The notes: generated from the sequence alone by a model not told the origin. A stretch of 64,000 bases of DNA from Candidatus Levyibacteriota bacterium (GCA_029260905.1 JAJDCH010000009.1:26498-90497); one strand, 5' to 3'; numbered from the stretch's first letter, positions 1,266 through 57,513 are shown. Numbers and translations are program-made.

Positions 1266-2645
1266 CTACGTTAGTAACTTATTAACCTCCGTCTTAAACT
1301 GCTCGCCGCGGTCTTTGTAATCTCTAAACATTCCGAAACTCGCACATGCTGGTGAGAGTAAAACAACATCCCCTAGCTTTGCAATTTTTGAGGCTGCCAA
1401 AACAATTGTCTGCATATCTGTTGCATCCTCAATAATTGGAAATTTAAAATTTGAAATTGGAAATTCCGCTTTCATGCGGTACCACTCATCCCCAATCCCG
1501 ATAATTGCCTTAATATTTTTGGATTCGCCAATTACTTTTCCAAGTTCTGTAAAATCACTGCCCTTACTTGAACCGCCAAGAATTAATATTTCAGGCTGTT
1601 TAAATGCCAAAATTGCAGCTATCGCTGTCTCGGGTGTGGTTGAAAAAGAATCATCATAAAACCTTACTCCATCTATTTCCCGCACAATCTCAATCCTGTG
1701 TTCTAGTCCTTTAAATGACTCAAGAACTTCTCTTATGCTTTCTGTTGATACGCCTGCTAGATTTGCAGTCATAGCAGCTGCACAAACATTTTCGAGATTG
1801 TGTTTTCCGGGAAGTAAGATTTGCTTAATATCCAAAATTTCATTATCACTACCGTTTTTTCGGATAATTACCTTACTGCCTATCACAAAGCATCCGTTTT
1901 CTGTTTCCCTCTCACGGGAAATATAAAAAACCTTTCCTTGCGACTCAACATCTGATTCGTTGCTTGCAGGATAATCTCTGTTGACAATTGCGAGGTCATC
2001 TGTGGTTTGAAAACGCAGTATATTTCTCTTTGCGTCAATATATTCATAAAGATCTTTGTGGTAATCCATGTGTTCACTTGTTGTCATAAGCATAACTGCG
2101 ATGTGTGGAGATTTCGTCAAATCCTGAAGCTGAAAACTGGAAAGCTCCAAAACCACCCAAGAATCAGGAGTCAATCTGTCAAAAAAATCAAGAGGCGGTG
2201 TCCCGATATTTCCTCCCAAATAAACATCGCTACTTTCAGACCTAAGCATTTCATGAATAAGGCTTGCTGTTGTTCCCTTTCCTTTTGTTCCTGTCACGCC
2301 GATCACATTTTTTGTGGGAGACAAATCAAAAAATAATTTTGTTTGAGAAGTGACATCTATTCCTTTTTTCTTTACATCAGCTAATTCTTTTGTGTCAAAT
2401 CTTATTCCTGGACTTCTGACTATTAAATCAAATTCAGATAGGTTTTTTAAATAGTTTTTTCCAAAAATTAAATTGTCTGAAACATCTTCTGCATCCGTTA
2501 AAATTTCTTTATCAATATATTCTTTTTCTTTTCTTTCAAGAAGATAAACACTAGCACCTTTTTTATTAAAAAATCGAGCTGAAGAGAGCCCTTCAACGCC
2601 AAGTCCTATTATCCCTATTTTTTTATTTTTAAAATTATTTATCAT
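1266..2645 (-). CDS. murD: UDP-N-acetylmuramoyl-L-alanine--D-glutamate ligase
   Basis: N-terminal Rossmann motif (IGIIGLGVEGLSSARF) and Mur ligase P-loop (VIGVTGTKGKGTTASL); 459 aa. Confidence 0.85.
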   Translation of the reverse strand: MINNFKNKKIGIIGLGVEGLSSARFFNKKGASVYLLERKEKEYIDKEILTDAEDVSDNLIFGKNYLKNLSEFDLIVRSPGIRFDTKELADVKKKGIDVTSQTKLFFDLSPTKNVIGVTGTKGKGTTASLIHEMLRSESSDVYLGGNIGTPPLDFFDRLTPDSWVVLELSSFQLQDLTKSPHIAVMLMTTSEHMDYHKDLYEYIDAKRNILRFQTTDDLAIVNRDYPASNESDVESQGKVFYISRERETENGCFVIGSKVIIRKNGSDNEILDIKQILLPGKHNLENVCAAAMTANLAGVSTESIREVLESFKGLEHRIEIVREIDGVRFYDDSFSTTPETAIAAILAFKQPEILILGGSSKGSDFTELGKVIGESKNIKAIIGIGDEWYRMKAEFPISNFKFPIIEDATDMQTIVLAASKIAKLGDVVLLSPACASFGMFRDYKDRGEQFKTEVNKLLT

Positions 2646-3439
2646 ATATTTATCTGAAAAAAATCATCAGTATTTATATTTTTACCAAACTTTTTAGAAA
2701 GATCAAAAAGAATTTTTTTGTCTCCGGTTGTGAAAAATTTATATTCCTGATTTTTCTTTTCTGATGCAAGATCTGCTTTCCCCAATACTCTTTTGACTTG
2801 CCTAGCAACAGCGCCACTTGAGTCAAGTACATCCACACTTGATCCAAAATATTTTCCAATCTGTTTTTTCAAAAAAGGAAAATGACTACAGCCAAGTGCC
2901 AGCGTATCAATTTTTTCTTTTTTAAATTTATCTAAAACAATATTCAATACTAAATCTATCTCCTCGCCTTTTAATATTCCTTTTTCTATCAGTGGAACCA
3001 AATCATCTGTTCCATGAGTAAAAACCTGACAGTCTCCTGCAAACTTTTTAATCAAATTTTTCTGATACACACTTTTATCAGTTCTTGTTGTTGAAAGAAC
3101 CCCTATCCTAGCATTTCTAGTTGTTTCTGCTGCTGTTTTAACAACTGGAACTATCCCAACAATTGGTACATTGGCAAACTTTTCTCTGAGCTTATCTAAA
3201 CAAGAAACAGTTATTGTATTACAAGCAACAACTATCAGTTTTGCTTCTTTTTCTAAAAGAAAAGAGGTCATCTTCTTGCTACGCTCATAAATTTCCGCCT
3301 CAGCCTTGCTACCGTATGGACAATTTAAAGAATCAGCAATATAAATTGCTGACTCCTGGGGAAGAAGATTAATTATCTTATCCCAAATCGTCAGACCGCC
3401 TACTCCTGAATCCAAAATTCCTATTGGCTGATTTTGCAT
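2642..3439 (-). CDS. murI: glutamate racemase
   Basis: IGILDSGVGGLTIW, CPYGSK, VVACNTI and ALGCSHFP motifs; 4-nt overlap with the murD start suggests an operon. Confidence 0.85.
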   Translation of the reverse strand: MQNQPIGILDSGVGGLTIWDKIINLLPQESAIYIADSLNCPYGSKAEAEIYERSKKMTSFLLEKEAKLIVVACNTITVSCLDKLREKFANVPIVGIVPVVKTAAETTRNARIGVLSTTRTDKSVYQKNLIKKFAGDCQVFTHGTDDLVPLIEKGILKGEEIDLVLNIVLDKFKKEKIDTLALGCSHFPFLKKQIGKYFGSSVDVLDSSGAVARQVKRVLGKADLASEKKNQEYKFFTTGDKKILFDLSKKFGKNINTDDFFQINI

Positions 3440-5318: not shown

Positions 5319-6602
5319 GTGGATAAAAACCAGAAATCAGCACTTGATAGTGATTTATTTGAAGAATTTAGATATCTCTACTTTGATGACTACGAATACT
5401 TAGCTACAGAAGACGAGAACAGGGAGAAGAACAAAAAAGATTTCCTTGCTGAAAAAATTGACAACCCCTCTTTTAACTATCCCCTACTGGATTCCTTTGA
5501 TTTTGAGAGTAAAAAAAACAAGTTTATCCAATTAAAAGAAAAGGCTAAAAAAAATAAAAACCAAATAGTTACAAAAGCATATATTGGGCGAATTGATGAG
5601 ATGCTAGAACAAATTGAGATGTTAAAAGCAGCAAAAACAGGTGATGATCTTGAGTTTACTAAACAATCAGTACTTATCTATGGCAAACCATCCCCCGATA
5701 TGTTTGAGTACGATAAAAAAGTGGTAAGTGACACAATTAAAAAAGCGCTTGAATCAGAAAGTTTAGAACGGGCAACTGCGACAACCCTGCTTCAAAAACA
5801 TTTTCCCGATCTTTCCTACAATAAATTGATTGAAAAAGATTTTGACCTTTTACCAAAACTTGTAAAAAATGATAGAAAAGTACTTAAATCAACTGAAATA
5901 AGATATATGTTTGAAAAAGCTGTGAAAGATCTGGATCTTAATAATTGGAAAGTAAAAATTGATAAAACAGGCAAAAAGACAAACCTAAGTGCCAATCAGG
6001 AAACAAAAACAGTCAGTATACCAAATGATGATAATATAAAAACCCGCATGGCGCCTACAACTGAGACAAATATCAAAGCATTAATCAACCATGAGCTAGG
6101 AACGCATGCAAAAAGGCGCGAGAATGGAGAAAAAAGCAAATTAAAACTTCTCGGACTTGGCCTTGATAGATTCCTAAAGGGCGAGGAGGGTCTTGCGTCT
6201 TTTGAATATCAAAAAATACAAGGCGCAAGTTATTTTGCTGGCTTTGGAAGTCATTTCTCAGTATCAATTGGGGTAGGACTTGACGGAAAAAAAAGAAACT
6301 TTAGAGAAGTTTTTGAAATACTAAAACTTTATTTTCTGGCATCAATCGAATCAGATACAGACAGAAAAAAACAGGCAGAGGATCTTGCCTGGAATACCTG
6401 CGTGAGGTGTTTTCGTGGAACAACCTGCAAAACACCAGGCAGCCTATTTACAAAAGGACATGTCTATAGTGAGGGAAATATTGGTATCTACAAACTAATT
6501 ACTTCTGGATCAAAAGAGGTTGAGAGATTTATGGTTGGCAAATATGACCCGACCAATAAAAACCACGTCCAAATCCTTGACGCATTGGGAATTTGGTGCT
6601 AA
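5319..6602 (+). CDS. putative HExxH metallopeptidase, DUF1704 / MATCAP-like (QEGLA-motif family)
   Basis: NHELGTHAKRR (HExxH), then GEEGLASFEYQ about 35 aa later, resembling the QEGLA motif of DUF1704 proteins; GTG start. Confidence 0.4.
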   Translation: MDKNQKSALDSDLFEEFRYLYFDDYEYLATEDENREKNKKDFLAEKIDNPSFNYPLLDSFDFESKKNKFIQLKEKAKKNKNQIVTKAYIGRIDEMLEQIEMLKAAKTGDDLEFTKQSVLIYGKPSPDMFEYDKKVVSDTIKKALESESLERATATTLLQKHFPDLSYNKLIEKDFDLLPKLVKNDRKVLKSTEIRYMFEKAVKDLDLNNWKVKIDKTGKKTNLSANQETKTVSIPNDDNIKTRMAPTTETNIKALINHELGTHAKRRENGEKSKLKLLGLGLDRFLKGEEGLASFEYQKIQGASYFAGFGSHFSVSIGVGLDGKKRNFREVFEILKLYFLASIESDTDRKKQAEDLAWNTCVRCFRGTTCKTPGSLFTKGHVYSEGNIGIYKLITSGSKEVERFMVGKYDPTNKNHVQILDALGIWC

Positions 6603-6619
6603 AAACTAATAACTATTTT

Positions 6620-7096
6620 ATGTCAAACCAAACAGAAAGTCCGCAACCTCAGCCATCAAGAAAAGAAGAATTAACTGGTAAGATTCCTGAACAGTTTATA
6701 AAAGGAATGAGTGCCTCTGGCCTTCAAGTTGATTACTTAAATACTTACATTCAATTTTTCCCATTTTTAGGACAAGTCTTTAAAGAAGGTAAAATCTCAG
6801 AATCAGCAGATCCAAAAACAATCTCTCTTTTAAAAGAACATATCAAAGACACAAAAACCTATACTGAATATTGGTCAGATCAGATTGATATGTATAATAA
6901 AAATGCACTTGAACAAAAATGGATTAAAGTCGACAAGAATTCTACAATGACTCTTTTAGTCACAGAACAACCTGAAACTGAAACGCTTGACTCGCTAGCA
7001 AGCATGGCAAGATCTCTAACTGATTTGGAAAATAACCATTCAGATCAAAAAATATTGGAAGAATTTATAAGAATAGCGGCAGAGCGGAAAGATTAG
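6620..7096 (+). CDS. hypothetical protein
   Basis: Open frame. Start moved to the ATG at 6620 (MSNQTESPQ) to avoid overlap with the upstream gene. No recognisable motif. Confidence 0.3.
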   Translation: MSNQTESPQPQPSRKEELTGKIPEQFIKGMSASGLQVDYLNTYIQFFPFLGQVFKEGKISESADPKTISLLKEHIKDTKTYTEYWSDQIDMYNKNALEQKWIKVDKNSTMTLLVTEQPETETLDSLASMARSLTDLENNHSDQKILEEFIRIAAERKD

Positions 7097-7182
7097 TTAG
7101 AAACGATCATATCAGAGAAGCTGACATTCTTAACGACTTCGGTTTGGAGATTGAAAAACCTAAATCAGAAATATAAACATTA

Positions 7183-7854
7183 TTACTTTTTCTTTGGAGA
7201 CATTCTATTTCTACTTACCCACCATTCATCATCCTTTTTAGCAAACCACCAATCATCTGAGTTTGTACTCATAATCTCTTTTGCAAGATCTTTGGCAACC
7301 TGTGTTTTCAATCTCTTGACAGCAGGCGGGATCGTTGCCTCTGCCCTTTTATTTCCTATATCCACCTGTTCTTTAAGTGAAAGAATCCAATCAATTGTAT
7401 CTGCATCTTTAGCAATAAGAGACTCTTGGGTTTTGCGCTCCTTCCACTCCTTCAGGAGATCAAGTATCTCACCGCCAAAACCAACAGTTGATGTAAGATC
7501 TTTAATCGCTCTGTCCTCATCAGCTTTTGCATATTTCTGGTGAACATAATTAAGATCACTCACTCTTGCCTCAGCCAAATCATGAAAAAGACACATTTTT
7601 ATCACTTTTGCGCTATCTACATTTTTCTCAAGACTAGATAGCACAAATCCCACATAAACAGTCCTGTTGATATGCTCGGCAACTGACTGCTCTCCTGATC
7701 CGACAAAATAAAAACCAGAACGTGGGGTTTTTGAGAGAATACCAACCTCAAAAAGAAAATTAGCAATGTTTTTATATGACTTTCCCATTTTAGTGGGCCA
7801 GGGAGGACTTGCTTCGACTATGCTCAGCATAAACTTCTCGTCCCTAACCATCAT
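7183..7854 (-). CDS. HD-domain phosphohydrolase (YfbR-like 5'-deoxynucleotidase family)
   Basis: H...HD motif (MCLFHDLAEARVSD) with an upstream His (AEHINRTVYVGF). Confidence 0.55.
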   Translation of the reverse strand: MMVRDEKFMLSIVEASPPWPTKMGKSYKNIANFLFEVGILSKTPRSGFYFVGSGEQSVAEHINRTVYVGFVLSSLEKNVDSAKVIKMCLFHDLAEARVSDLNYVHQKYAKADEDRAIKDLTSTVGFGGEILDLLKEWKERKTQESLIAKDADTIDWILSLKEQVDIGNKRAEATIPPAVKRLKTQVAKDLAKEIMSTNSDDWWFAKKDDEWWVSRNRMSPKKK

Positions 7855-26344: not shown

Positions 26345-28345
26345 ATGCGCCCTGTCCTGAAACGTTTTTTTGCTTTTTGCTTTTTGCTTTTTGCTTTTTG
26401 CTTTTTGCCAAATACTGCTTTTGCCCAAACCACATCTACGTTAAATCAGACCACAAAATCAACTAATTCTTTTACTGAGCCAGATCTTGACCCCAGCGTA
26501 CCACGAAATCAGCATATTTATACTCAATCTGTGATGATTGAGGTCTTATCAGCAGTTGTTTGTCAGATAACAGGGCTTGATCCTGTTAACCCTTATCAGG
26601 GGTGTCTTGGCGTCAATCCCCAGACTCGAAAACTTAGCCTCATCCCACCCAGTCTTGATGAAAAAGGCAGTCCACAAGTGGGGGGGTTACTTGGCGCCAG
26701 CGCCAACATGATTGCAGTGCTTTATGTTCCAACAACTAGCTCTACAGATTATTTTAAGCACGTCGCCGGTAATTTTGGCCTAGTCAAGTCCGCACAAGCA
26801 CAAGAGGATAATAGCTATGGTTTGATTGCTCTTCAGCCTGTCTTTGGTCTTTGGGAAACAGTTCGTAATGTCTCATATACACTTCTTGTTCTGGCATTTG
26901 TGTTCATCGGTGTTGGAATCATGGTTAGATTTAAAATAGATCCAAGAACTGTTATGAATCTCCAAAACCAAATCCCAAGAGTAATCATCACAATTATTCT
27001 TATCACTTTTTCTTATGCAATATCAGCTGTTCTTATTGACATGATGTGGGTTAGTACTTATGCAGGAGTAAGGGTGCTTGGAGATAGTAGCGATACGAAA
27101 ATAAATGACTGTAAAAGCGATAAACCTGAAAGTCTTTCTGAAAACGCAACCAAAAACCTGCTTCAAACACCGCTTACTTATTTCCACAATGTCTTTGGAG
27201 AATGTGATGAGAGTGATGTAAACAAGTACGATGGTGGTTTTCATCGTGTTACATTTGGAGTTGCTGGCAATCTAGGACAAGTCCTCAATGACACAGCCAA
27301 AAGTCTTTTTCAAACAGATGAAAACCGTGAAGAGGGCTGCTTCAGTTTTTCAGGAATCAAACCAAACATCAACCCAGGCGCTTGTCTGATCTCAGGCATC
27401 ACTGGAGTGATGAGCTTCATGCTTATAATTGTTATCTTTGTAATTCTTTTAATTACACTTTTTAGGATCTGGTTTGCGCTTTTGAAGGCATACATCTATA
27501 CACTTGTTTTTGTTATTACTGCGCCTGTTTATTATGTGCTTGGTCTTTTACCCTCCCGTCCTCTTGGATTTCAAAAATGGCTGAGGTCTTTTTTCGCAAA
27601 TATCGCTGTTTTCCCGATAACTGCATTTGTCTTGGTGGGCGCGCGCCTCATGATAGATCTTTACAAAAACGATCTAGCAGATAAATTTGTGCCTCCATTG
27701 GTGGGAACGCCGGTTGGTGCCAATTTCGGAGTCTTAATGGCATTTGGTGCTCTTCTCATCACTCCCTCTCTACAACAGATTCTCAAAGACAAACTAGGTG
27801 TCAAGGGTATTGCGTCACCTGGTCTTATCGCAGCAGGTCTTGCAGTTGGAGCATCCCCTGTCAGCTATCTTGCAGGACGCATGAAGGGCAATCTAACAAG
27901 ACGAGATTCCCATGGTAATCCAATCGGCTCTGTGTCAAGAGGCGTTGAACAAATAGGAAAAAGCGCATATGCGGGGACTATTGGCAAGCTCCCAGGAGGA
28001 GTAGGTAAATGGGCAACACAAAGACAAAAAGAAAATTATGAAATGCGCGCAATGGGAATGGGTGGGAAAACAACCTACAAAGAATTCTTAAAAACAACAG
28101 GCATGAGCGGGAAAGAGATTGATGAAGGCGTTGGTAATATAATACGAGATAAAAAATATAAAGACGACGATTCTGGTAAAGCAAGAGATAAAGCACTAAG
28201 AGACATGACGCATGAAAAGGCTAGAAACCGTCATGTTGACTTTGGTTCCCATGTCCAACACGGAGAATCTGGAACTGGCAGGACTGCTCCAAGAAGACAA
28301 ACACCACCAGACAACAATAACGGTGAAGATAGCAACACTGGTTAA
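26345..28345 (+). CDS. polytopic membrane protein, candidate VirB6/TrbL-like type IV secretion channel component
   Basis: Signal peptide, about 150-aa extracytoplasmic region, at least six TM helices, hydrophilic Gly/Lys-rich C-terminal tail. Start placed at ATG 26345 because the track ORF start (26246) runs into a tRNA. Confidence 0.4.
   Translation: MRPVLKRFFAFCFLLFAFCFLPNTAFAQTTSTLNQTTKSTNSFTEPDLDPSVPRNQHIYTQSVMIEVLSAVVCQITGLDPVNPYQGCLGVNPQTRKLSLIPPSLDEKGSPQVGGLLGASANMIAVLYVPTTSSTDYFKHVAGNFGLVKSAQAQEDNSYGLIALQPVFGLWETVRNVSYTLLVLAFVFIGVGIMVRFKIDPRTVMNLQNQIPRVIITIILITFSYAISAVLIDMMWVSTYAGVRVLGDSSDTKINDCKSDKPESLSENATKNLLQTPLTYFHNVFGECDESDVNKYDGGFHRVTFGVAGNLGQVLNDTAKSLFQTDENREEGCFSFSGIKPNINPGACLISGITGVMSFMLIIVIFVILLITLFRIWFALLKAYIYTLVFVITAPVYYVLGLLPSRPLGFQKWLRSFFANIAVFPITAFVLVGARLMIDLYKNDLADKFVPPLVGTPVGANFGVLMAFGALLITPSLQQILKDKLGVKGIASPGLIAAGLAVGASPVSYLAGRMKGNLTRRDSHGNPIGSVSRGVEQIGKSAYAGTIGKLPGGVGKWATQRQKENYEMRAMGMGGKTTYKEFLKTTGMSGKEIDEGVGNIIRDKKYKDDDSGKARDKALRDMTHEKARNRHVDFGSHVQHGESGTGRTAPRRQTPPDNNNGEDSNTG
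26365..26408 (+). repeat. heptanucleotide tandem repeat (TTTTTGC) x6 inside the signal-peptide codons of the VirB6-like gene
   Basis: Read directly: tttttttgc tttttgc tttttgc tttttgc tttttgc tttttgc, encoding FAFCFLLFAFCFL. Confidence 0.8.
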
Positions 28346-31518: not shown

Positions 31519-31650
31519 AAAATCTCCTTTCTTTAAGATACTACTACCATCATATCTAGTAGCAGATCACAGTGTCAATTGAGGCAATTGTAGCCCTATA
31601 AAGCAGAACAAGCTTTATATATAAATTACAAGAAGTTAACAAAACAGTTT

Positions 31651-31678
31651 TTGCGCTTTGAGTTTTGCGCTTTGAGTT
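31651..31678 (+). repeat. 14-bp direct repeat x2 (TTGCGCTTTGAGTT) overlapping the promoter of the regulator gene
   Basis: ttgcgctttgagtt ttgcgctttgagtt is followed at once by TATAAT (31680-31685) and ATG 31692. Confidence 0.75.
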
Positions 31679-31685
31679 TTATAAT
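31658..31685 (+). promoter_or_regulatory. putative promoter TTGAGT-16nt-TATAAT embedded in the direct repeats, leaderless-type
   Basis: The -35-like TTGAGT lies inside the first repeat copy; TATAAT sits 6 nt before the ATG. Confidence 0.35.
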
Positions 31686-31691
31686 CTATTT

Positions 31692-33026
31692 ATGGACGAA
31701 TATTTTGAAGCAACATATCCTGATACCGCACGAATTGCGACACTGAGTCAAATTGCCGATTTTGTCAAAAAAGGCGAATCCGCACAGCTGATTGGATTGC
31801 CCACATCTGGAAGATCTATAATTCTCAGACTCCTTGCACACAACAGCAAAGTGCGGTCAAAACACTTTGGCAAAAATTCCAAATTCCATTTTGTATTAAT
31901 TGACTTTTCAGAAATAAAAAACAGATCACTTTTTGACTGCATGAAGTTTTTCTTTTTGTCCCTGTCTGATTCTCTAAGAGCACGAGGAATGGATGAAGAA
32001 TATAAAAAAGTAAATCAATTATTTAAAGAGTCACTCAGCTTTAATGACGAGCTGGTTTTGTTTCAGGCCTTAAAAGACGCATTTGACTATCTTATCCTTG
32101 AAAGAAACCTAAACATTACATTACTCTTTGACAGATTTGAAGAATATATTCCAAGTATTACAGATCAGTTTTTTACCAACCTTCGCACTCTTCGCTCTCG
32201 CGCAATTTATAAGTTTTCAGTTATTTTTTCTCTTACCCGTCCGCTTGAGACCATGCTTGACCCATTACTTCTTGCCGATTTTTATGAACTAATTGCCGGC
32301 AATCTGATATTTCTATCCCTTGCAGATAGTGAAATAAACAAAACAAGAATAAAACATATTGAAAAAGTAACAGGCAAAAAACTCTCTTCAGTTCTTTTTG
32401 ATGAACTAACAAAACTGACAGGCGGAGCGGGCAAGCTTCTAAAAATTTCTACAGAAAGCATATTGGCCAATCAACAATTTAACAATTTAGCTATAGAGCA
32501 ATTGAGCAAAAATTTATTGCCCCAAAAACCAGTTCAAAAAACTCTGTCTGAAATCTTGCGTTCTCTGACACCTGAGGAACAGTCAGATCTCCTTACTCAA
32601 AAGTATGATAACTCTGATGTTGAGGAATATTTCGAAAAAATAGGTCTTGTTAAAAATAAAAGGATTCAAATTCCACTTTTTGAGGAATATCTGAAATCAG
32701 ATTTGATTAAAAATTCAATAAATGAAGAAAAAATTTTCTATGATAAAAATACCAATACAATCAAAAAGGGCGAGACAACTGTTTCTGACCAGCTTACTTC
32801 ATCTGAGTTCTTACTTCTCAGGCATCTTTTGCAAAATAAAGGTCAGGTTATAACTCGCGATGATATAATCAGCGCTGTCTGGCCGGATGTGAAATCAACT
32901 GCAGGAATAACTGATCAAGCAGTTGATCAGTTGATATTTAGATTAAGAAGAAAAATTGAAGAAAATCCCGCCAGTCCAGTCTATCTTTTTACTATTAAAG
33001 GACGCGGTTTCAAGTTTGAATCATAG
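31692..33026 (+). CDS. transcriptional regulator: N-terminal NTPase-like domain (degenerate P-loop) fused to a C-terminal OmpR/PhoB-type winged-helix DNA-binding domain, with no receiver domain
   Basis: C-terminus LTSSEFLLLRHLLQNKGQVITRDDIISAVWPDV...VDQLIFRLRRKIEEN...TIKGRGFKF is a Trans_reg_C signature; N-terminal LIGLPTSGRSIILRLL is P-loop-like. Start placed at ATG 31692; the track start is 31665. Confidence 0.55.
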   Translation: MDEYFEATYPDTARIATLSQIADFVKKGESAQLIGLPTSGRSIILRLLAHNSKVRSKHFGKNSKFHFVLIDFSEIKNRSLFDCMKFFFLSLSDSLRARGMDEEYKKVNQLFKESLSFNDELVLFQALKDAFDYLILERNLNITLLFDRFEEYIPSITDQFFTNLRTLRSRAIYKFSVIFSLTRPLETMLDPLLLADFYELIAGNLIFLSLADSEINKTRIKHIEKVTGKKLSSVLFDELTKLTGGAGKLLKISTESILANQQFNNLAIEQLSKNLLPQKPVQKTLSEILRSLTPEEQSDLLTQKYDNSDVEEYFEKIGLVKNKRIQIPLFEEYLKSDLIKNSINEEKIFYDKNTNTIKKGETTVSDQLTSSEFLLLRHLLQNKGQVITRDDIISAVWPDVKSTAGITDQAVDQLIFRLRRKIEENPASPVYLFTIKGRGFKFES

Positions 33027-45895: not shown

Positions 45896-46649
45896 CATTA
45901 TTTTTGTTAACCCGCTTATTAATGCAATGGTTGCAATTTATCACTTATTAACAAGTGCTGGAATTCCATATGCTGTTGGGTTTTCGATAGTTGGGCTTAC
46001 AGCGGTGATACGTATTGTGATTTCTCCCCTCTTGGCGCATCAAATAAAGGCGCAAAAAAAAATGCAAGCAATGCAGCCACATCTATCGAAAATAAAAGAA
46101 AAGCATAAGGGTGATGCTAAGGCTCAACAGGCAGCAACAATGGCACTTTATAAAGAACATGAGATTAATCCAGCAGCAGGTTGTTTGCCGCTCTTGGTTC
46201 AGTTGCCCCTTTTTTGGGCGCTTTTTCATGTTATTCAAGAAATTGTTAAAAAAGACGGTATTACATACATAAACAAAGCTGTTTATTCAAGCAGTTTGAG
46301 AGTAACGGGTAATTGGGACACAAGTTTTTTTGGACTTCCGATAGGTCAATCGCCAAGCGAGCTTGTTTCAACAACCGGCTTTCTCATTGTTCTTGTACCT
46401 ATTATCACAGCAGCTTTAATGTTTGTTCAGTCAAAAATGCTTGCGCCAAAGGTTAAGAAAGACGCAGTTAAAAAAGATGGACCTGATGATTTTGCAACAA
46501 CTTTTCAGAAGCAATCAATGTATTTAATACCTATAATCATCGGTTTTGCTGGTTGGACATTCTCAATAGGACTTTCTCTGTACTGGAATACTTTTACTAT
46601 TTTTGGTATTATACAGCAGTACTTTTTAAACAAAGATAAAAATGAGTGA
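45858..46649 (+). CDS. yidC: membrane protein insertase YidC (short Oxa1-type)
   Basis: ISPLLAHQIKAQKKMQAMQPHLSKIKEKHKGD...GCLPLLVQLPLFWALF pattern. The true start may be a downstream ATG near 45879 to reduce the overlap with yidD. Confidence 0.75.
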   Translation: MPILIILMGNIFDIIFVNPLINAMVAIYHLLTSAGIPYAVGFSIVGLTAVIRIVISPLLAHQIKAQKKMQAMQPHLSKIKEKHKGDAKAQQAATMALYKEHEINPAAGCLPLLVQLPLFWALFHVIQEIVKKDGITYINKAVYSSSLRVTGNWDTSFFGLPIGQSPSELVSTTGFLIVLVPIITAALMFVQSKMLAPKVKKDAVKKDGPDDFATTFQKQSMYLIPIIIGFAGWTFSIGLSLYWNTFTIFGIIQQYFLNKDKNE

Positions 46650-47109
46650 TCTAAAAATTACAACCAAAGAAAAAAAAACAATAGAAGAAGCAATCGGTGA
46701 TCTTTTTGCATCCCTTGAGATACAGGGGACATTTACTCTTTCACAAAATGATGAAATATTAGATATTGTGATGGAAACTGAAGATAGTGGCATGATAATT
46801 GGATATCATGGAGAGACACTTGAATCGCTTCAGCTTATTATTTCTTTAATGGTTGCCAAAAAGATAGATAAGTTTATAAGAGTTTCAATTGAGGTTGACG
46901 GTTACAAAAAAGCCCGCATGGAATATCTGGAATCTTTGGCAAGACAGATGAAGGAAAAAGTGTTAGAAGAAAAACAGGAACAGGTGGTAGATTCTCTTAA
47001 ATCATGGGAGAGGCGTATTGTTCACCTTGCCCTTCAAGATGATCCTGATGTTGTTTCAGAGTCAGCTGGCGTTGGACGCGACAGGGTTCTAATAATAAAG
47101 CCCAAGTAA
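46642..47109 (+). CDS. jag: Jag/KhpB-family RNA-binding protein (KH plus R3H)
   Basis: C-terminal R3H region RIVHLALQDDPDVVSESAGVGRDRVLIIKP; conserved position after yidC. Confidence 0.7.
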   Translation: MSDLKITTKEKKTIEEAIGDLFASLEIQGTFTLSQNDEILDIVMETEDSGMIIGYHGETLESLQLIISLMVAKKIDKFIRVSIEVDGYKKARMEYLESLARQMKEKVLEEKQEQVVDSLKSWERRIVHLALQDDPDVVSESAGVGRDRVLIIKPK

Positions 47110-47146
47110 ATTGCTGCATTGCTTGATTGTTCAATTGTTAAGACAA

Positions 47147-47174
47147 CAATGAAACAATGAAACAATGAGACAAT
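47147..47174 (+). repeat. octanucleotide tandem repeat (CAATGAAA x2, CAATGAGA, partial CAAT) spanning the start codon of the downstream membrane-protein gene
   Basis: caatgaaa caatgaaa caatgaga caat; each unit carries an ATG. The first two are followed by in-frame TGA; the third opens the 440-aa ORF at 47165. Confidence 0.75.
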
Positions 47175-48487
47175 TCGTTTCAAACCTCGAAAAAATTCTC
47201 TTCTACGCGTTACTCCTTTTGCTCCCTGTGCAACTTGGCAAACATTTCTGGCCTAGCTCTTCTTTTGTTCATGGTTTGAGAATTGATTATTTATCCCCCA
47301 CTCTTTACTTGACTGACATTATTGTTGGGTTGTTGTTTGTTGTGTGGGCTATTCGCGCATTTGGTGCAAGGCGTAAGGCGCAAAACTTAAAACAACAATT
47401 AAAAACTAAAAGTTTTTTAAGCTTCACAGCAGCGTTTTTGTTTTTGGTTTTCAATGTTTTTCAAAACGCGGTAATAGAGCACGCCCTTTATTATGTGTTA
47501 AAAATTCTAGAAATGGGTTTTGTGGTTTTTTATATAGCTAAATTTGTGGATTTGAAAAAAGATTTGGTAAAGGTTATAAGTATTTTAGGTTTGGGCTCTG
47601 TTTTTGAATCAATTCTTGCAATTGCCCAGTTTTTTAACAAAGGATCAATTGGAGGAGTGTTATATTATCTTGGGGAACGGACATTTACATCAACTACTCC
47701 TGGAATTTCTAATGCGTCAATTCAGGGAGAGCTAGTTCTTCGACCGTATGCAACATTCCCCCACCCCAATGTGCTAGCTGGATATTTGGTGGTTGTAATG
47801 ACACTTGTTTTGTTTTTGTTTGTAATGATAAGCAAAAAACAAAAAACTATCAGTTATCAGTTATCAGTTATCAGTTATCTTATCCTTAGTACATTTGCCC
47901 TTTTCCTAACGCTTAGCAGAATAGCAGTATTGGTTTGGGTTTTGGTTTTAGGATTTGTGTTGGTTAAAAAAATATTATCCAGCAATGTGGTAATAAAACA
48001 GGTAGGCAATATGTTAACAATTTTTATTATAATTGCTTTTGTTTTTTTTACTCCCCTATTCTCCCGTTTTCTGGAAACATCAATTAGAGAACAGTCAGTT
48101 GTGCAAAGAAAAGAATTGATAAATGCATCAGTCGAGATGGTAAAAGAAAAGCCATTTACAGGAGTTGGTCTTGGTAACTTTATCCCAACACTTGTTAATA
48201 TAAGTGGTCCGCTTAAATCATCAACTTATCTCCAACCGGTTCATAATATTTATCTTCTCGTTGCTGCAGAAACAGGACTGATTGGGCTTGGTTTTTTTCT
48301 GATTTTTCTCTATAAAACATTTAAAAAAACCAGCCATAAGCTACATATCATAAGTCATATGCGATTGGTTTTTTTAATAATTTTAGTTCTTGGAATGTTT
48401 GATCATTACTTCTTAACACTTCAACAAGGGCAACTGCTTTTTGTAGTTGTCTTGGGTTTGTGCTGGACAAAAAATAATTTTACATAA
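47165..48487 (+). CDS. O-antigen ligase/polymerase-like (Wzy/WaaL family) polytopic membrane protein
   Basis: About 10 TM helices with the characteristic ETGLIGLGFFLIFLY region near the C-terminus. Confidence 0.5.
   Translation: MRQFVSNLEKILFYALLLLLPVQLGKHFWPSSSFVHGLRIDYLSPTLYLTDIIVGLLFVVWAIRAFGARRKAQNLKQQLKTKSFLSFTAAFLFLVFNVFQNAVIEHALYYVLKILEMGFVVFYIAKFVDLKKDLVKVISILGLGSVFESILAIAQFFNKGSIGGVLYYLGERTFTSTTPGISNASIQGELVLRPYATFPHPNVLAGYLVVVMTLVLFLFVMISKKQKTISYQLSVISYLILSTFALFLTLSRIAVLVWVLVLGFVLVKKILSSNVVIKQVGNMLTIFIIIAFVFFTPLFSRFLETSIREQSVVQRKELINASVEMVKEKPFTGVGLGNFIPTLVNISGPLKSSTYLQPVHNIYLLVAAETGLIGLGFFLIFLYKTFKKTSHKLHIISHMRLVFLIILVLGMFDHYFLTLQQGQLLFVVVLGLCWTKNNFT
47848..47879 (+). repeat. heptanucleotide tandem repeat (TATCAGT) x4.6 inside the coding sequence of the O-antigen-ligase-like gene
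   Basis: tatcagt tatcagt tatcagt tatcagt tatc read directly; the unit length is not a multiple of 3. Confidence 0.8.
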
Positions 48488-48684
48488 ATTAATAATTGAT
48501 AGTTTAAAGTTGTGAACGGGAAAAAATTTACAAACAGTAGCTTCGCAAACTTAAGGTTTCTTATTTTTTTCGTAACTTTTGAAAGTTGAGATTAGCCCGC
48601 AAATTTGAGTAAAATTCACATCCCGCACTGCGAAAACCCATCTGATCCATTCACTAAAACTAATAAATTTAGTATCATAAAATT

Positions 48685-51363
48685 ATGCCCAATGATCAGC
48701 CCGCCCTAATCGCAACTGAAGAAAAGCAAACTCTGCCAATTTTAATAGTAGATAAAAAAGGAGGATTTGGAACCATGCTTGCTCAAAAATTACAAGAGCA
48801 CTTCCTTGTAGTTCTTGTTAGTAAAGATGTACCTGATTTTCATAAAAACCTTATCCATGTCCCCTATAAGAGAAAGATACCAACAATTCCCGATAATACA
48901 TTTACACAAATTTTTGTTTTTTATAACGGCGAAGAAGAAGTGCTTGAAATGCTTCCAAGCTTTATGAAAAAGGCAAACGATACAGGAGGGAAATTAATTT
49001 TCATATTAAGTCTTTTTCAAAGCAATGAAAAAATATTTAAAAGAATCTCTCACCATACATATCATTCAATGCAAACAATTTTATATGGTGAGGTTTTTGA
49101 ACAAAAAGCAACTTCATCTAATGTTGTTAATTTTTTTGTCCATCAAGCAAGAGGAAAAGGCAAGCTTGAAATACCAAATGATGGTATGGATAAATATTAT
49201 CCAGTTTTTGATGAAGATGTAATCACGGTTATTATCGCGACCGCATTTAGTCAAGGAAAACCAAATAAGCTTACTTTTGTTTTTCCTAAGGTTCCGTTTA
49301 CGGCTTTAAGTATTGCAAGAATTATTAAAAAAATTAATCCAGATTTGAGTTTTGATTTTAAAAAAAGTAAGTACAAGGCGCCCAATCTTTTTATGCCCGA
49401 TGGGGGAGTTTATGTATACACTTCATATCCACTTGAAGATCGGATCAGAATGATTCCAGCAAAGCATGATAAATGGATTGAAAAAGCATCTAGCAAAGTT
49501 CTCAAGCTACCAAAACAAGAATTAAAATTTAATTTTAAGACTTTTCTGCTTAGTGTTTTGGTTGCAACAATGCTTCCGCTTATTGTTTCTGTTTTTTCAA
49601 TGGGGTTAGGACTTTTTGGGCTTTATGGATCTGTGAGTGCTTTTTCCAGAGGAGAGGTGCAAGCAGCAGAAGGGTTTGCTGGCTTTTCGAAGAGCTCATT
49701 TGAAGTTGCTGATTTTACAAGTAGCAATTTCCCAGCTATTTATTTTTTTCCTGAACCATTTAGGTCAAATTTCACAGACAGTATTTTAAGAGGTAAAAGA
49801 GTATCAGTTGCAGGTCTTGAGCTGATTCAGGCATTTGTAGTAGTTAAAAACATAACCAATGGAGAAAGCAAAAGCCCCAAAGATGATTATTTAAAATCAA
49901 TTGCATCAATTAAAAACTCGCTTCTTACTCTTTCTCAGATGAGAACAGAAGGGCAAATACCACCAAGTATAGAAAAAAAACTAGCTGATCTGGATGAATT
50001 GATAGGCATAGTTGAAAATACAATTGATGCAACACCTGAGCTTTTGGGATTTGATGAAGAGAAAAAATATCTGATTCTTTTTCAAAATAATATGGAACTT
50101 CGTGCAGGAGGTGGCTTTATTGGATCATATGGACTTTTGACATTGAGAGATGGAAGAGTAAAGGATTTTGTAGTCAATGATGTTTATGATGCAGATGGTC
50201 AATTAACAACGCATGTGGAGCCACCATATGCTCTTAGACGTTATTTAGGGGTTGAGCATTGGTTCATGAGAGATAGTAACTATTCAATTGATTTTAGCGC
50301 TTCAGGTGCAGCTGCAGCCGACTTATTTGAAAGATCAGTTGATGTAACTGTTGACGGAGTAATAGGGATAGACACTGTTTTTTTGAAAAAGATTTTGGAG
50401 GCAGTTGGTCCTGTGTCTGTGAGTGATTATAAAGAAACTGTAAATGCAGACAACTTTTATCTTTTGACACAAACTCATGCTGAAAAAAATTTTTTTCCTG
50501 GATCAACCCAGAAAAAAGATTTTTTAAGATCTTTATTTACAACACTTCAATTAAAGGTGTTTGAGGGGGATATATCTTATTTTGATCTTATAAAAAAAAC
50601 TGGTGAGGCAATAAAAGAAAAACATGTGCTTTTTGCATTTAAAAATAGGGCAGTTGAAGAAGTGTTTAAAGTCAACTCGTTAACAGGTGGGTTTTGGGAT
50701 GAAAGAACTTCCAAGACAGATACGTTTCTTGACTTTCTGGGAATAGTTGATAGTAACCTGGGGTCAAATAAGGTTAATTATTATCTCAAACGAAAAATAA
50801 GCCACGGTGTGAATTTTTCGCCAAGTGGTAATGTAACAGCTGTTGCTGTAGTTGATTTTGAAAACACCAGCACAAAAGATAGTATTTTTGGTGGGGATTA
50901 CAAAAACTATATGCGTTTTATACTTCCAGAGGGCGCTGTTCTGAATGCAGTAAGTATCGATGGATTGGCTATTGAAACAACACCAGCAATAACAGAACCT
51001 TCAATTTTTAATGATCAGACTTTTGTACCACCAAGTCAATTAGAGATAGAAACATCGGTAGTTGATGGAAAAAACATAATTGGATTTTTTTTGATTGTCC
51101 CAACAAGTTCAAAAAAGAAGATTGGAGTTTCATATTCGATTGCAAATGCTCTAAATATAGATTCTGATAAGTTCTCATATAATCTCAGGCTATTTAAACA
51201 GCCAGGAACAGTTGATGATCCTTATGCGCTTACATTTACTTACCCAAACTCGATAAAACTTTCAGACAAAAATATAGGAATAGTAGATCTTGGAGGAAAA
51301 TTTGTTTTTGAATCAAAAATGCTGACTGATCAAGATATAATTATTAATTTCGTAAAAAGGTAA
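48685..51363 (+). CDS. DUF4012 domain-containing bitopic membrane protein (892 aa)
   Basis: Cytoplasmic N-terminal domain, TM (LLSVLVATMLPLIVSVFSMGLGLFGLYG), then extracytoplasmic LILFQNNMELRAGGGFIGSYGLLTLRDG...HWFMRDSNYS, the DUF4012 signature. Confidence 0.55.
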   Translation: MPNDQPALIATEEKQTLPILIVDKKGGFGTMLAQKLQEHFLVVLVSKDVPDFHKNLIHVPYKRKIPTIPDNTFTQIFVFYNGEEEVLEMLPSFMKKANDTGGKLIFILSLFQSNEKIFKRISHHTYHSMQTILYGEVFEQKATSSNVVNFFVHQARGKGKLEIPNDGMDKYYPVFDEDVITVIIATAFSQGKPNKLTFVFPKVPFTALSIARIIKKINPDLSFDFKKSKYKAPNLFMPDGGVYVYTSYPLEDRIRMIPAKHDKWIEKASSKVLKLPKQELKFNFKTFLLSVLVATMLPLIVSVFSMGLGLFGLYGSVSAFSRGEVQAAEGFAGFSKSSFEVADFTSSNFPAIYFFPEPFRSNFTDSILRGKRVSVAGLELIQAFVVVKNITNGESKSPKDDYLKSIASIKNSLLTLSQMRTEGQIPPSIEKKLADLDELIGIVENTIDATPELLGFDEEKKYLILFQNNMELRAGGGFIGSYGLLTLRDGRVKDFVVNDVYDADGQLTTHVEPPYALRRYLGVEHWFMRDSNYSIDFSASGAAAADLFERSVDVTVDGVIGIDTVFLKKILEAVGPVSVSDYKETVNADNFYLLTQTHAEKNFFPGSTQKKDFLRSLFTTLQLKVFEGDISYFDLIKKTGEAIKEKHVLFAFKNRAVEEVFKVNSLTGGFWDERTSKTDTFLDFLGIVDSNLGSNKVNYYLKRKISHGVNFSPSGNVTAVAVVDFENTSTKDSIFGGDYKNYMRFILPEGAVLNAVSIDGLAIETTPAITEPSIFNDQTFVPPSQLEIETSVVDGKNIIGFFLIVPTSSKKKIGVSYSIANALNIDSDKFSYNLRLFKQPGTVDDPYALTFTYPNSIKLSDKNIGIVDLGGKFVFESKMLTDQDIIINFVKR

Positions 51364-55812: not shown

Positions 55813-57513
55813 TTATTTATGTTCTATATTAAAAAATGCAAAACCCGATTGCGGGATTGAGAGATAGCCTGGTGCTCTCAGGTTAAACGCTCTTTTGAAA
55901 TCATCACCACTCATGGAGACACCATTTATTGTGACATTGGCAGTGCTTCCGTTTCCTTGTGAGACAGAGACACTTGTCGCGTTTGATATGCCTCCTTTGC
56001 CTGAGGTGAGGCTTCGTAGCTCATCCATGCTGTAGGGATTTCCACCCCAGCAAGAAGTTGTAATAGGTGTAATTCGTCCTGTGTCAATTCCACCAGAATC
56101 ACGGAGTGCAATTGCAGCATTAACAATATCTGCCATCTCAGTTGGGCTTAGCCAAGGATTTGACCTGCCACATGTGTTTCCTGAATTGCTGTATCCTTGT
56201 CTCCACCATGATTTGTAGAGCCATGGAGATCCTCCGTCTTTTTCCCATGCTTTGTCAATAAATCTTGAGCCGCCAGATCCATCTTTGGTATCCCAACCAA
56301 TTGGTGATGCATATCCACCATGGGTTGACGCGTAGTAGGTGACTACATCTTCAAGAACCTGTCCTCGTGTTGACTCAACCGCGCTTCTCCAAGCAGCAGG
56401 TGGATTATCAGCTTTTCCAGAATTAAAAACCTGACATGATTCACTGGTACAGATCTCTTTACCTTCGACTTTATATCTATATGCATAAGTTCTTGCCGCA
56501 ACGGCTTGAGCTTTTAGTGCTTCAGGATGCCAACTGGATGGCATTTCTGCAATTCCCATTAGGTATCGTTCCTCAAAGTTTATCGAGCCATGTCCTGCAA
56601 CGTTTATATCCCCTCCTGTATCCTTGCTGACAGGCTGTTTGCCATAGTATGCATTCAAGATTGTTTTAAAGTCTTGTCCAGCCTGCGCGCGCCCTCTTGC
56701 TCCATATTGGCTCATTCCTTTTCTGTGCGTATATCCACCAAAAGAGAAAGCAGCAAATGAGCCACCTGGGGCTGATTCATTAAACCCCTTGATTGAGGAA
56801 AGGTATTCATCTGCAAGCTCGCCTGACCCAATTGTAAAAGTAAAAGTACCTGATCTTGCGGAAAGAATTTCTTGTTGCTTGGCAGATAGGTCTGCGATTT
56901 TTCCTGATAAATCGCTTTGATAGTTTTTGGCTCCCTTGACAACTTCATCAAGCTTGGCTGATTTTTCATCCAAAGATTTTTTGACTGATGCTAGTCTTTT
57001 TTGTTCATCTTCAAGGCCTGCCTTTTTGCGTTCTAGATCAACAAGCGTCAAAACCATATTTGTAATTAGAGCCTTGTCTTGTTTTGTTTTGGCTTGTTGG
57101 AGAGAGATAGTCCTGGTTGCATCAGATATATCTCCAACTGAAAAAAGCGCTAGAAACGGGCTTGAGTAGTAGGAGTTTATATAGAACTCACGTATAGTTG
57201 CAGAAATAACCCGTTCTTTTGCTTCAAACTCCTCATAGCCCTTATCAATTTCTTTTTTCTTAACAACAATTCCATTTTCAATACTAATGATGCTTGATTT
57301 TATTCCCTCAATTTGTTTTTTCATGCGGGTCAACTCTTCCTCAACTGGCTCAGTTGCTGCAATTGATTTAGCAAGCGCATCATTTAAGTTGGCAAGCTCT
57401 TTGTTGATATTATCTAATTCATCAGCCTTTATAAGTGATGGATGAGCAACAAGAAGAATACTTAACGAAAGTACAAAAGAGGTAAATAGAAGAAAAATCT
57501 TTTTAATGGGCAT
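55813..57513 (-). CDS. SpoIID/LytB-domain protein with N-terminal signal peptide and long coiled-coil
   Basis: GMSQYGARGRAQAGQDFKTILNAYYG signature. The N-terminal third is coiled-coil, reminiscent of EnvC-type amidase activators. Confidence 0.6.
   Translation of the reverse strand: MPIKKIFLLFTSFVLSLSILLVAHPSLIKADELDNINKELANLNDALAKSIAATEPVEEELTRMKKQIEGIKSSIISIENGIVVKKKEIDKGYEEFEAKERVISATIREFYINSYYSSPFLALFSVGDISDATRTISLQQAKTKQDKALITNMVLTLVDLERKKAGLEDEQKRLASVKKSLDEKSAKLDEVVKGAKNYQSDLSGKIADLSAKQQEILSARSGTFTFTIGSGELADEYLSSIKGFNESAPGGSFAAFSFGGYTHRKGMSQYGARGRAQAGQDFKTILNAYYGKQPVSKDTGGDINVAGHGSINFEERYLMGIAEMPSSWHPEALKAQAVAARTYAYRYKVEGKEICTSESCQVFNSGKADNPPAAWRSAVESTRGQVLEDVVTYYASTHGGYASPIGWDTKDGSGGSRFIDKAWEKDGGSPWLYKSWWRQGYSNSGNTCGRSNPWLSPTEMADIVNAAIALRDSGGIDTGRITPITTSCWGGNPYSMDELRSLTSGKGGISNATSVSVSQGNGSTANVTINGVSMSGDDFKRAFNLRAPGYLSIPQSGFAFFNIEHK

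Follow-up and report, generated by a model that had tools for sequence, protein, structure and literature searches.

A heptanucleotide tract as a candidate contingency switch in a Wzy_C/WaaL-type glycan gene of a Candidatus Levyibacteriota bacterium

The stretch of DNA analysed here, hereafter the window, comprises 64,000 nucleotides (nt) from an ultra-small bacterium of groundwater type, Candidatus Levyibacteriota bacterium (GCA_029260905.1 JAJDCH010000009.1:26498-90497), and all positions are counted from its first letter. At 47165-48487 on the plus strand it carries a gene for a polytopic protein of 440 amino acids (aa) with 12 hydrophobic segments, assigned to the Wzy_C/WaaL type of glycan ligases or polymerases. 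Within this gene, at 47848-47879 (plus strand, aa 228-239), lies a perfect heptanucleotide tract, (TATCAGT)x4.57, which is a candidate frameshift switch. An 8-nt tandem repeat spans the start codon of the same gene, and a further perfect tract, (TTTTTGC)x6, lies in a second gene of the window. An earlier note made from the sequence alone, referred to here as the original prediction, had proposed that these repeats expose envelope genes to switching mediated by simple sequence repeats (SSRs).

The protein matches PF04932 (Wzy_C, O-antigen ligase) with 63.8 bits, against a gathering cutoff of 31.7, over aa 239-379. It has approximately 2,900 homologues (2876), nearly all of them in metagenome-assembled genomes (MAGs) of Patescibacteria/Microgenomates. 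A profile built from 28 homologues matches only one solved structure, the WaaL of Cupriavidus metallidurans (7TPG; E = 1.6e-5, aligned over 7TPG residues 166-336), and the same structure is the only fold match to the AlphaFold (AF2) model (predicted template modelling score, pTM, 0.81; Foldseek E = 1.8e-4 with a moderate template modelling score of 0.46-0.50). Both proteins have 12 transmembrane (TM) segments, but their identity is only about 14%. Residues R252, R301, R315, H360, N361 and G371 are invariant in the 28 homologues and include an H360-x10-G371 arrangement, which makes them candidate catalytic residues, and the invariant Arg and His residues would lie in outward loops. WaaL enzymes have conserved Arg and His residues in outward-facing loops and a motif of the H-x10-G type. 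The gene product is best explained as a putative enzyme of the WaaL/Wzy_C type, with a role in assembling a surface glycan or attaching it. Bacteria of the Candidate Phyla Radiation (CPR) are thought to lack lipopolysaccharide (LPS), so that the acceptor and product must differ from those of WaaL. A literal O-antigen ligase, transferring O-antigen onto lipid A-core, is therefore unlikely in a CPR bacterium, and the protein may instead polymerise a glycan, ligate it to a different anchor or act as a protein O-glycosyltransferase.

The TATCAGT tract begins 683 nt into the coding sequence, in agreement with the repeat placed about 680 nt into the gene by the original prediction, and encodes T-ISYQLSV-ISY-L. 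Its longest self-match is 25, compared with 16 for the 8-nt repeat and 35 for the TTTTTGC tract, whereas 100 dinucleotide-preserving shuffles of the 64-kilobase (kb) window, scanned at periods 4-12, gave a mean of 10 and a maximum of 13. These three are also the only tracts in the window with a period of at least 4 and at least 3 perfect copies. In the AF2 model the TATCAGT tract corresponds to the last part of a short loop (aa 222-228), following a lysine-rich KKQK, and to the first turns of helix 7 (H229-249); by the positive-inside rule this loop would be cytoplasmic. Tandem Repeats Finder (TRF) reports two further repeats in the gene: (CAAAAAA)x2.1 at 47833-47847 (plus strand), which adjoins the main tract and encodes the KKQK, and a decayed AAAACTA-like heptanucleotide repeat of 4.4 copies with 70% matches at 47382-47411 (plus strand), in the first predicted cytoplasmic loop and at the first of the tract positions described below.

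The expectation that a change in copy number would truncate the polytopic protein is borne out by simulation. Gain or loss of one or two TATCAGT units brings in stops at aa 236-252, ahead of the Wzy_C domain (aa 239-379), and gain or loss of three units keeps the frame and gives products of 433 or 447 aa. Alignment of homologues shows that the loop at the tract varies in both sequence and length among orthologues, and thus the 7-nt repeat does not simply encode conserved residues. Two other explanations of the tract were considered and rejected. The gene lies 2 kb from dnaA, but TATCAGT matches only 5 of the 9 positions of TTATCCACA, and a DnaA-box array is also ruled out by a relative (L104) in which a tract occupies the same position and the upstream gene is not jag. 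Similarly, inverted repeats near the tract were discarded as structural elements, as they reflect complementarity between Lys codons and Phe/Leu codons that is typical of AT-rich sequence coding for loops and helices.

For comparison, 59 species-level orthologous loci (687 kb) were scanned for perfect repeats with a self-match of at least 12, with block shuffles as the control; all sequences compared are metagenome assemblies. The scan returned 59 perfect repeats in the 59 loci, with a period of 7 in 31 of them and of 14 in another 14, or 45 of 59 together. Every other period is represented by at most 3 repeats (periods 6, 9 and 12 by 1, 3 and 3, and period 3 by none), and the block shuffles gave at most 0.6 per period. 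Repeat density is 0.31 per kb in the gene, compared with 0.061 per kb in the flanks. Most of the flank repeats (26 of 38) fall within 1 kb of the gene, and the density in the gene and its 1-kb surroundings is roughly 10-fold higher than further out. The repeats inside the gene map to window residues of about 70-96, 129, 218-226, 274-288 and 389-399, all of them inter-helix loops rich in Lys and Arg, and the TATCAGT tract occupies the third of these four or five positions (orthologous tracts at about 218-226). Many Microgenomates thus hold perfect heptanucleotide tracts of their own at the same loops, which answers the call of the original prediction for a check of orthologues. The units vary with species and position, all of them free of stops in the three phases of the coding strand; 13 of the 59 species (about 22%) have tracts at these shared loops, built of differing units. 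The pattern is no different in metagenome loci, where a single gene holds up to four tracts among the matches listed (e.g. L066). At the protein level, a polar periodicity of 7 residues was found in 44 of 120 homologous proteins, compared with 3-11 for lags of 5, 6, 8 and 9 residues, and the peptides concerned are translations of heptamers, such as KSKIKNQ from (AAATCAA)n, RIKNQES from (AGAATCA)n and ISNFKFQ from (ATTTCAA)n. Selection for the repeat peptides themselves was rejected, because peptides such as ISYQLSV, KSKIKNQ, IFNFQFS and VTGYRVQ differ completely between species while the DNA units remain perfect. Tracts are also found in the tails of jag and YidC, and in other relatives jag and the Wzy_C gene overlap, the overlap itself bearing 7-nt tracts.

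These distributions bear on the main rival explanation, namely that the tracts are neutral by-products of slippage which arise everywhere and survive only in unconstrained loops and junctions, frameshifted alleles being deleterious mutants. All tract positions are indeed Lys/Arg-rich loops of variable length or gene tails, the tracts are short (3-6 units), and other indels and palindromic insertions gather in the same loops. However, slippage in coding sequence should favour the frame-safe periods 3, 6 and 9 rather than 7 and 14, and selection should purge frame-breaking tracts from a gene that is needed, instead of which they recur at the same loops in different species; nor would the concentration of repeats in and around the gene be expected of tracts that arise everywhere. 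Neutral slippage therefore explains where the tracts lie, but neither the dominance of periods 7 and 14 nor their recurrence in a usually intact gene, and it is considered unlikely as a full account.

Variation in tract length has been found in relatives. In one pair of loci, L064 (GCA_900218215.1) and L065 (ENA ERZ909605), 6.5 kb are identical save for one mismatch and one gap, and the gap corresponds to a single ATTTATC unit inside the Wzy_C gene, in a 2.6-kb alignment with no mismatch. L065, with ATTTATC x4.57, encodes a product of 444 aa, whereas L064, with x3.57, stops at aa 283; in the corresponding cluster, four contigs carry the full-length form and one the truncated form. An OFF allele has therefore reached an assembly consensus, which speaks against neutral slippage. 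In a second locus (L056) the frame changes exactly at A9+(AATTTTC)3.86, and one more unit, two fewer units or A10 in place of A9 restores the conserved C-terminus LGMFDHYFLTLQQGQ. The A9 run at 7145-7153 of this locus stands directly before the out-of-frame tract, and slippage at this homopolymer, at the DNA level or in transcription, could bring back the frame as well. Gene callers split or truncate such genes in MAGs, as happened with the protein P0147 and with L056, and hence annotated pseudogenes at these loci may be OFF phases.

The repeats, or the difference in copy number, might alternatively be artefacts of assembly or sequencing, or chance. The reliance on metagenome assemblies lends this some weight, and L064 and L065 may stem from related read sets. 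However, the tracts are 24-42 nt long and so well within read length, they exceed all shuffles and recur in independent assemblies from many projects, and a clean 7-nt indel is atypical of short-read error; moreover, if both alleles came from one read set they would themselves show heterogeneity in the population. Artefact or chance is accordingly regarded as extremely improbable.

Other length differences are of another nature. Short members of clusters at 90% identity (P0125, P0158, P0148 and others) were examined as possible OFF alleles and rejected, being due to contig ends or start-codon calls; P0147 is the only real frameshift among the short members checked. Most pairs of near-identical loci show no tract differences, and their indels are unrelated to repeats. 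Two further orthologous alleles are out of frame at sites other than heptanucleotide tracts, one through a 16-nt indel that separates two strains of 98.5% identity (L107 at 2629, L120 at 940) and one at an A7 run (L045, 6990-7010). Two otherwise identical 7-kb loci (L101 and L103) differ by a clean 112-nt indel at 6320, downstream of the gene. For the genome of the window, an exact look-up of contigs carrying this protein returned nothing, and a search of metagenomes for the tract flanks with a variable gap gave 0 matches. The nearest homologue, besides the identical NCBI entry, has 50% identity.

The suggestion that envelope genes more generally are subject to SSR-mediated switching gains support from two further genes. 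In the window, the second candidate switch is the perfect (TTTTTGC)x6 at 26367-26408 (plus strand), located in the hydrophobic signal-peptide core of a TrbL/VirB6-like protein of 666 aa (ATG at 26345) with 5 further TM segments, some homologues of which match Pfam TrbL/VirB6. Here, gain or loss of one or two units leads to stops at aa 30-42. A 7-residue periodicity occurs in the first 55 aa of 13 of 94 TrbL/VirB6-like homologues, and in one orthologue (L140, 601-700) the corresponding site holds a degenerate array of TTTTTGC/TTTTTAG. In Daviesbacteria-like loci, the gene that follows Wzy_C encodes a Wzx-type flippase (Polysacc_synt/MatE), and in six species (L025, L029, L034, L039, L045 and L055, at about 7340-7465) this gene has a tract position of its own at aa 71-85, with units that include AAAGTTC, AATTTTC, TACAGGG and GAGTCAA, among others.

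At the other end of the Wzy_C gene, the 8-nt repeat is present as originally described, spanning the start codon with an ATG in each unit and an in-frame TGA after the first two. The repeat (AACAATGA)x3 is perfect at 47145-47168 and is the same as the CAATGAAA of the original prediction in another register; TRF extends it with one mismatch to 47174 (x3.8 at 47145-47174, plus strand, 95% matches). Its ATGs at 47149, 47157 and 47165 are in three different frames, the third opening the 440-aa open reading frame (ORF). The first two each begin a mini-ORF, ATG AAA CAA TGA (MKQ*), at 47149-47160 and 47157-47168 (plus strand), whose stop overlaps the next ATG as ATGA, in the second case that of the real start at 47165. 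Since MKQ (ATG AAA CAA) is the commonest N-terminus in the alignment of the Wzy_C family, the mini-ORFs can be taken as duplicated copies of the real start, and the repeat, as read from its sequence, is a tandem triplication of an ancestral start region (AACA-ATG-A). Because the repeat is tandem, a change in unit number leaves the last ATG and its frame untouched, and no ON/OFF frameshift results. The proposal that unit number acts on the mini-ORFs and their spacing is thus better read differently, with the frame of the last ATG fixed and the repeat serving as the 3' arm of a predicted hairpin.

The 5' arm of this hairpin, likewise read from the sequence, lies at 47110-47139 (plus strand) and consists of four units of 8-nt periodicity (ATTGCTGC ATTGCTTG ATTGTTCA ATTGTT) of the CATTG type, the reverse complement of CAATG. 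RNAfold predicts an interrupted RNA hairpin at 47109-47175 (plus strand), in which each CAUUG unit pairs with a CAAUG unit around a loop AAGAC (47140-47144), and all three AUGs are wholly or partly paired. Its predicted energy is -19.8 kcal/mol (z = -2.95), and none of 200 shuffles was as stable. The AACAATGA unit is also found at the start codons of two relatives, L104 (x2.75; protein 40% identical) and L001 (x2; 48% identical), and in all three species the inverted CATTG array starts 0-2 nt after the upstream stop codon. The hairpin of L104 has -21.1 kcal/mol (z = -3.49), and in L001 the same pairs form with a z of only -0.91. For the CAUUGUU-AACAAUG pairing of the window, L001 has a pairing of CAUUGCUG and CAGCAAUG, and the MAFFT alignment of the three hairpins is structurally inconsistent.

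The gene upstream of the hairpin, at 46642-47109 (plus strand), encodes jag/KhpB, an RNA-binding protein with KH and R3H domains (Pfam KH_KhpA-B and R3H), and its stop codon, TAA at 47107-47109, abuts the hairpin. The Wzy_C gene has no Shine-Dalgarno sequence, which is likewise absent from most genes of the window, and no recognisable promoter was found in the 55-nt spacer between jag and Wzy_C. In the absence of a Shine-Dalgarno sequence, translation is probably opened by ribosomes finishing jag. The repeat and hairpin probably control translation as a coupling or masking element, in which ribosomes completing jag would open the hairpin that buries the AUGs, and the two MKQ mini-ORFs, through their ATGA overlaps, would hand ribosomes on to the real start. 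Changes in unit number would then alter the register and strength of the hairpin rather than the frame. In phage MS2, the coat and replicase genes are translationally coupled by ribosomes that open a hairpin sequestering the replicase start codon. The predicted window hairpin resembles this system in starting at the upstream stop and burying the downstream AUG without a Shine-Dalgarno sequence, but differs in that both of its arms are tandem 8-nt units, which allow several pairing registers and contain several AUGs. The lowest folding z-score of any junction, -3.75, belongs to an inverted array pair at the jag/Wzy_C junction of another relative (L042, 5899-5975), formed by (AGAATCA)x3 in the C-terminal tail of jag and an inverted copy (GGATTCTTGATTCT) about 45 nt later.

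Palindromic insertions occur in several relatives (GTCATTCC...GGAATGAC, GTCATCCCGACGAATGTCGGGATCC and GTCTCGCCTCGCGAAGCGGGC; L026 at 6619 and 7056-7084, L059 at 7023-7048, L035 at 5870-5895). They sit within loops of the Wzy_C gene in L026 and L059 and at the junction in L035, and are read through as protein. The tracts could stem from small palindromic mobile elements with this locus as their target, either as traces left by them or as parts of them; 7-nt target-site duplications that later expanded and arms built of tandem units are examples. Their period and paired inverted layout would in that case be properties of the element and not a product of selection on the gene. A mobile-element source is suggested by the insertions of the GTCATTCC...GGAATGAC type and similar ones, and by the inverted array pairs at the jag/Wzy_C junction in the window, L104, L001 and L042. 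However, the TATCAGT tract of the window lacks an inverted partner in its vicinity, the units vary from one species and position to the next, and four to six perfect head-to-tail copies are unlike the remnants of transposition. Such an origin is judged improbable; it concerns only how the tracts arose, and hence would be compatible with switching driven by slippage.

The TATCAGT tract is best explained as a slipped-strand contingency switch within a surface-glycan gene, a reading to which we assign a probability of roughly 0.6; slippage in this genome and an adaptive value are what we infer. Because orthologues carry heptanucleotide tracts at the four or five loop positions to which that of the tract belongs, the locus would act as a contingency locus. 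If replication added or removed one or two units, the frame would shift and translation would end at aa 236-252, ahead of the Wzy_C domain (OFF), and a further slip would restore the frame (ON). The position of the tract, a predicted cytoplasmic loop together with the beginning of helix 7, would tolerate translation in any of the three phases. A contingency locus of this kind would make the population heterogeneous for the surface glycan, with phage evasion or changed attachment to a host cell as possible uses.

Several results weigh against this explanation. Among the species-level assemblies, 57 of 59 are in frame, which also favours neutral slippage, and only one SSR-bearing gene is out of frame at a tract. 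The two other tracts of L064 and L065 show no difference, and six variants of P0014 at the level of single-nucleotide polymorphisms are all of one length. The conservation and synteny of the gene suggest that it is usually needed. The tract positions are also the very loops that best accommodate insertions, and this tolerance suffices to explain where the tracts lie. In addition, the TATCAGT tract is short, with only 4.6 units. Classical phase-variable loci have more repeat units than this, and thus switching may be slow. At the start region, the hairpin is found in three species only, and structure at the junction is not general in the family: the mean z is -0.60 compared with -0.22 in controls (P = 0.023), and z is below -2 in 16% of junctions and 11% of controls, a weak effect.

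The mechanism itself is already known from SSR contingency loci. In Neisseria, the pgl genes for protein O-glycosylation, such as pglE, hold heptanucleotide coding repeats, and opa carries CTCTT repeats in its signal-peptide region. The Neisseria tracts are longer, and the Wzy_C-family member PglL is not known to be itself the switched gene. These systems share with the window the occurrence of heptanucleotide coding repeats in a glycosylation pathway, and the TTTTTGC x6 tract in a signal peptide is placed as in opa; however, they have no sequence relationship to the window gene. In host-adapted bacteria, SSR contingency loci of surface-glycan genes take the form of tetranucleotide tracts in Haemophilus influenzae (LPS) and poly-G in Campylobacter jejuni (capsule and lipooligosaccharide) (PMC2651432, PMC8437040). 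The likeness to the window extends to a non-triplet coding repeat in a glycan gene, truncation of the enzyme by a change of units, and several envelope genes per genome (PMC2651432, PMC8437040). By contrast, the repeats described here have a 7-nt unit in 3-6 copies and are found in the middle of a gene, which may hold up to four of them, each encoding part of a predicted cytoplasmic loop of the polytopic product. Moreover, Haemophilus and Campylobacter are pathogens, whereas the present loci belong to environmental CPR bacteria. Nothing comparable emerged from full-text literature searches that paired phase variation with candidate phyla radiation, Patescibacteria or Microgenomates, and the one CPR paper on repeats concerns an in-frame 9-mer.

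Most members of the CPR remain uncultured. Their genomes are tiny and encode few regulators, and a life attached to other cells is assumed for them. Stochastic surface switching in this group is a concrete hypothesis that can be checked with existing metagenomic reads. A wider reading, put forward tentatively and with less than even odds, is that the heptanucleotide tracts form a selected, lineage-wide system of Microgenomates that switches, through slippage, a conserved and origin-proximal surface-glycan pathway (Wzy_C ligase, Wzx flippase and jag tail), that the TrbL/VirB6-like protein is switched likewise, presumably for phage evasion or host attachment, and that the inverted start arrays are a register-shifting hairpin which tunes translation. 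If true, the CPR would thereby gain its first described phase-variation system.

The neighbourhood of the Wzy_C gene is shared with relatives. Upstream, the order is dnaA (minus strand), rpmH, rnpA, yidD, yidC and jag/KhpB, and the order dnaA-rpmH-rnpA-yidD-yidC-jag-Wzy_C recurs in Microgenomates relatives; the step from jag to Wzy_C is kept in L061-L065. Downstream, a DUF4012 gene (Pfam) at 48685-51363 (plus strand) is a conserved neighbour, found also in L060, L062, L064 and L065. In many genes of the window a TATAAT-like hexamer precedes the ATG by 6-10 nt (e.g. at 48650-48685, and for the minus-strand genes at 2642-3439 and 55813-57513), which suggests widespread leaderless mRNAs or mRNAs with very short leaders. 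At 31649-31692, a 14-nt repeat, (TTTTGCGCTTTGAG)x2.3, ends at a perfect TATAAT located 6 nt before the ATG (31692) of a Trans_reg_C-domain protein. As the repeat unit supplies a -35-like TTGAGT, the number of units may set the geometry of the promoter.

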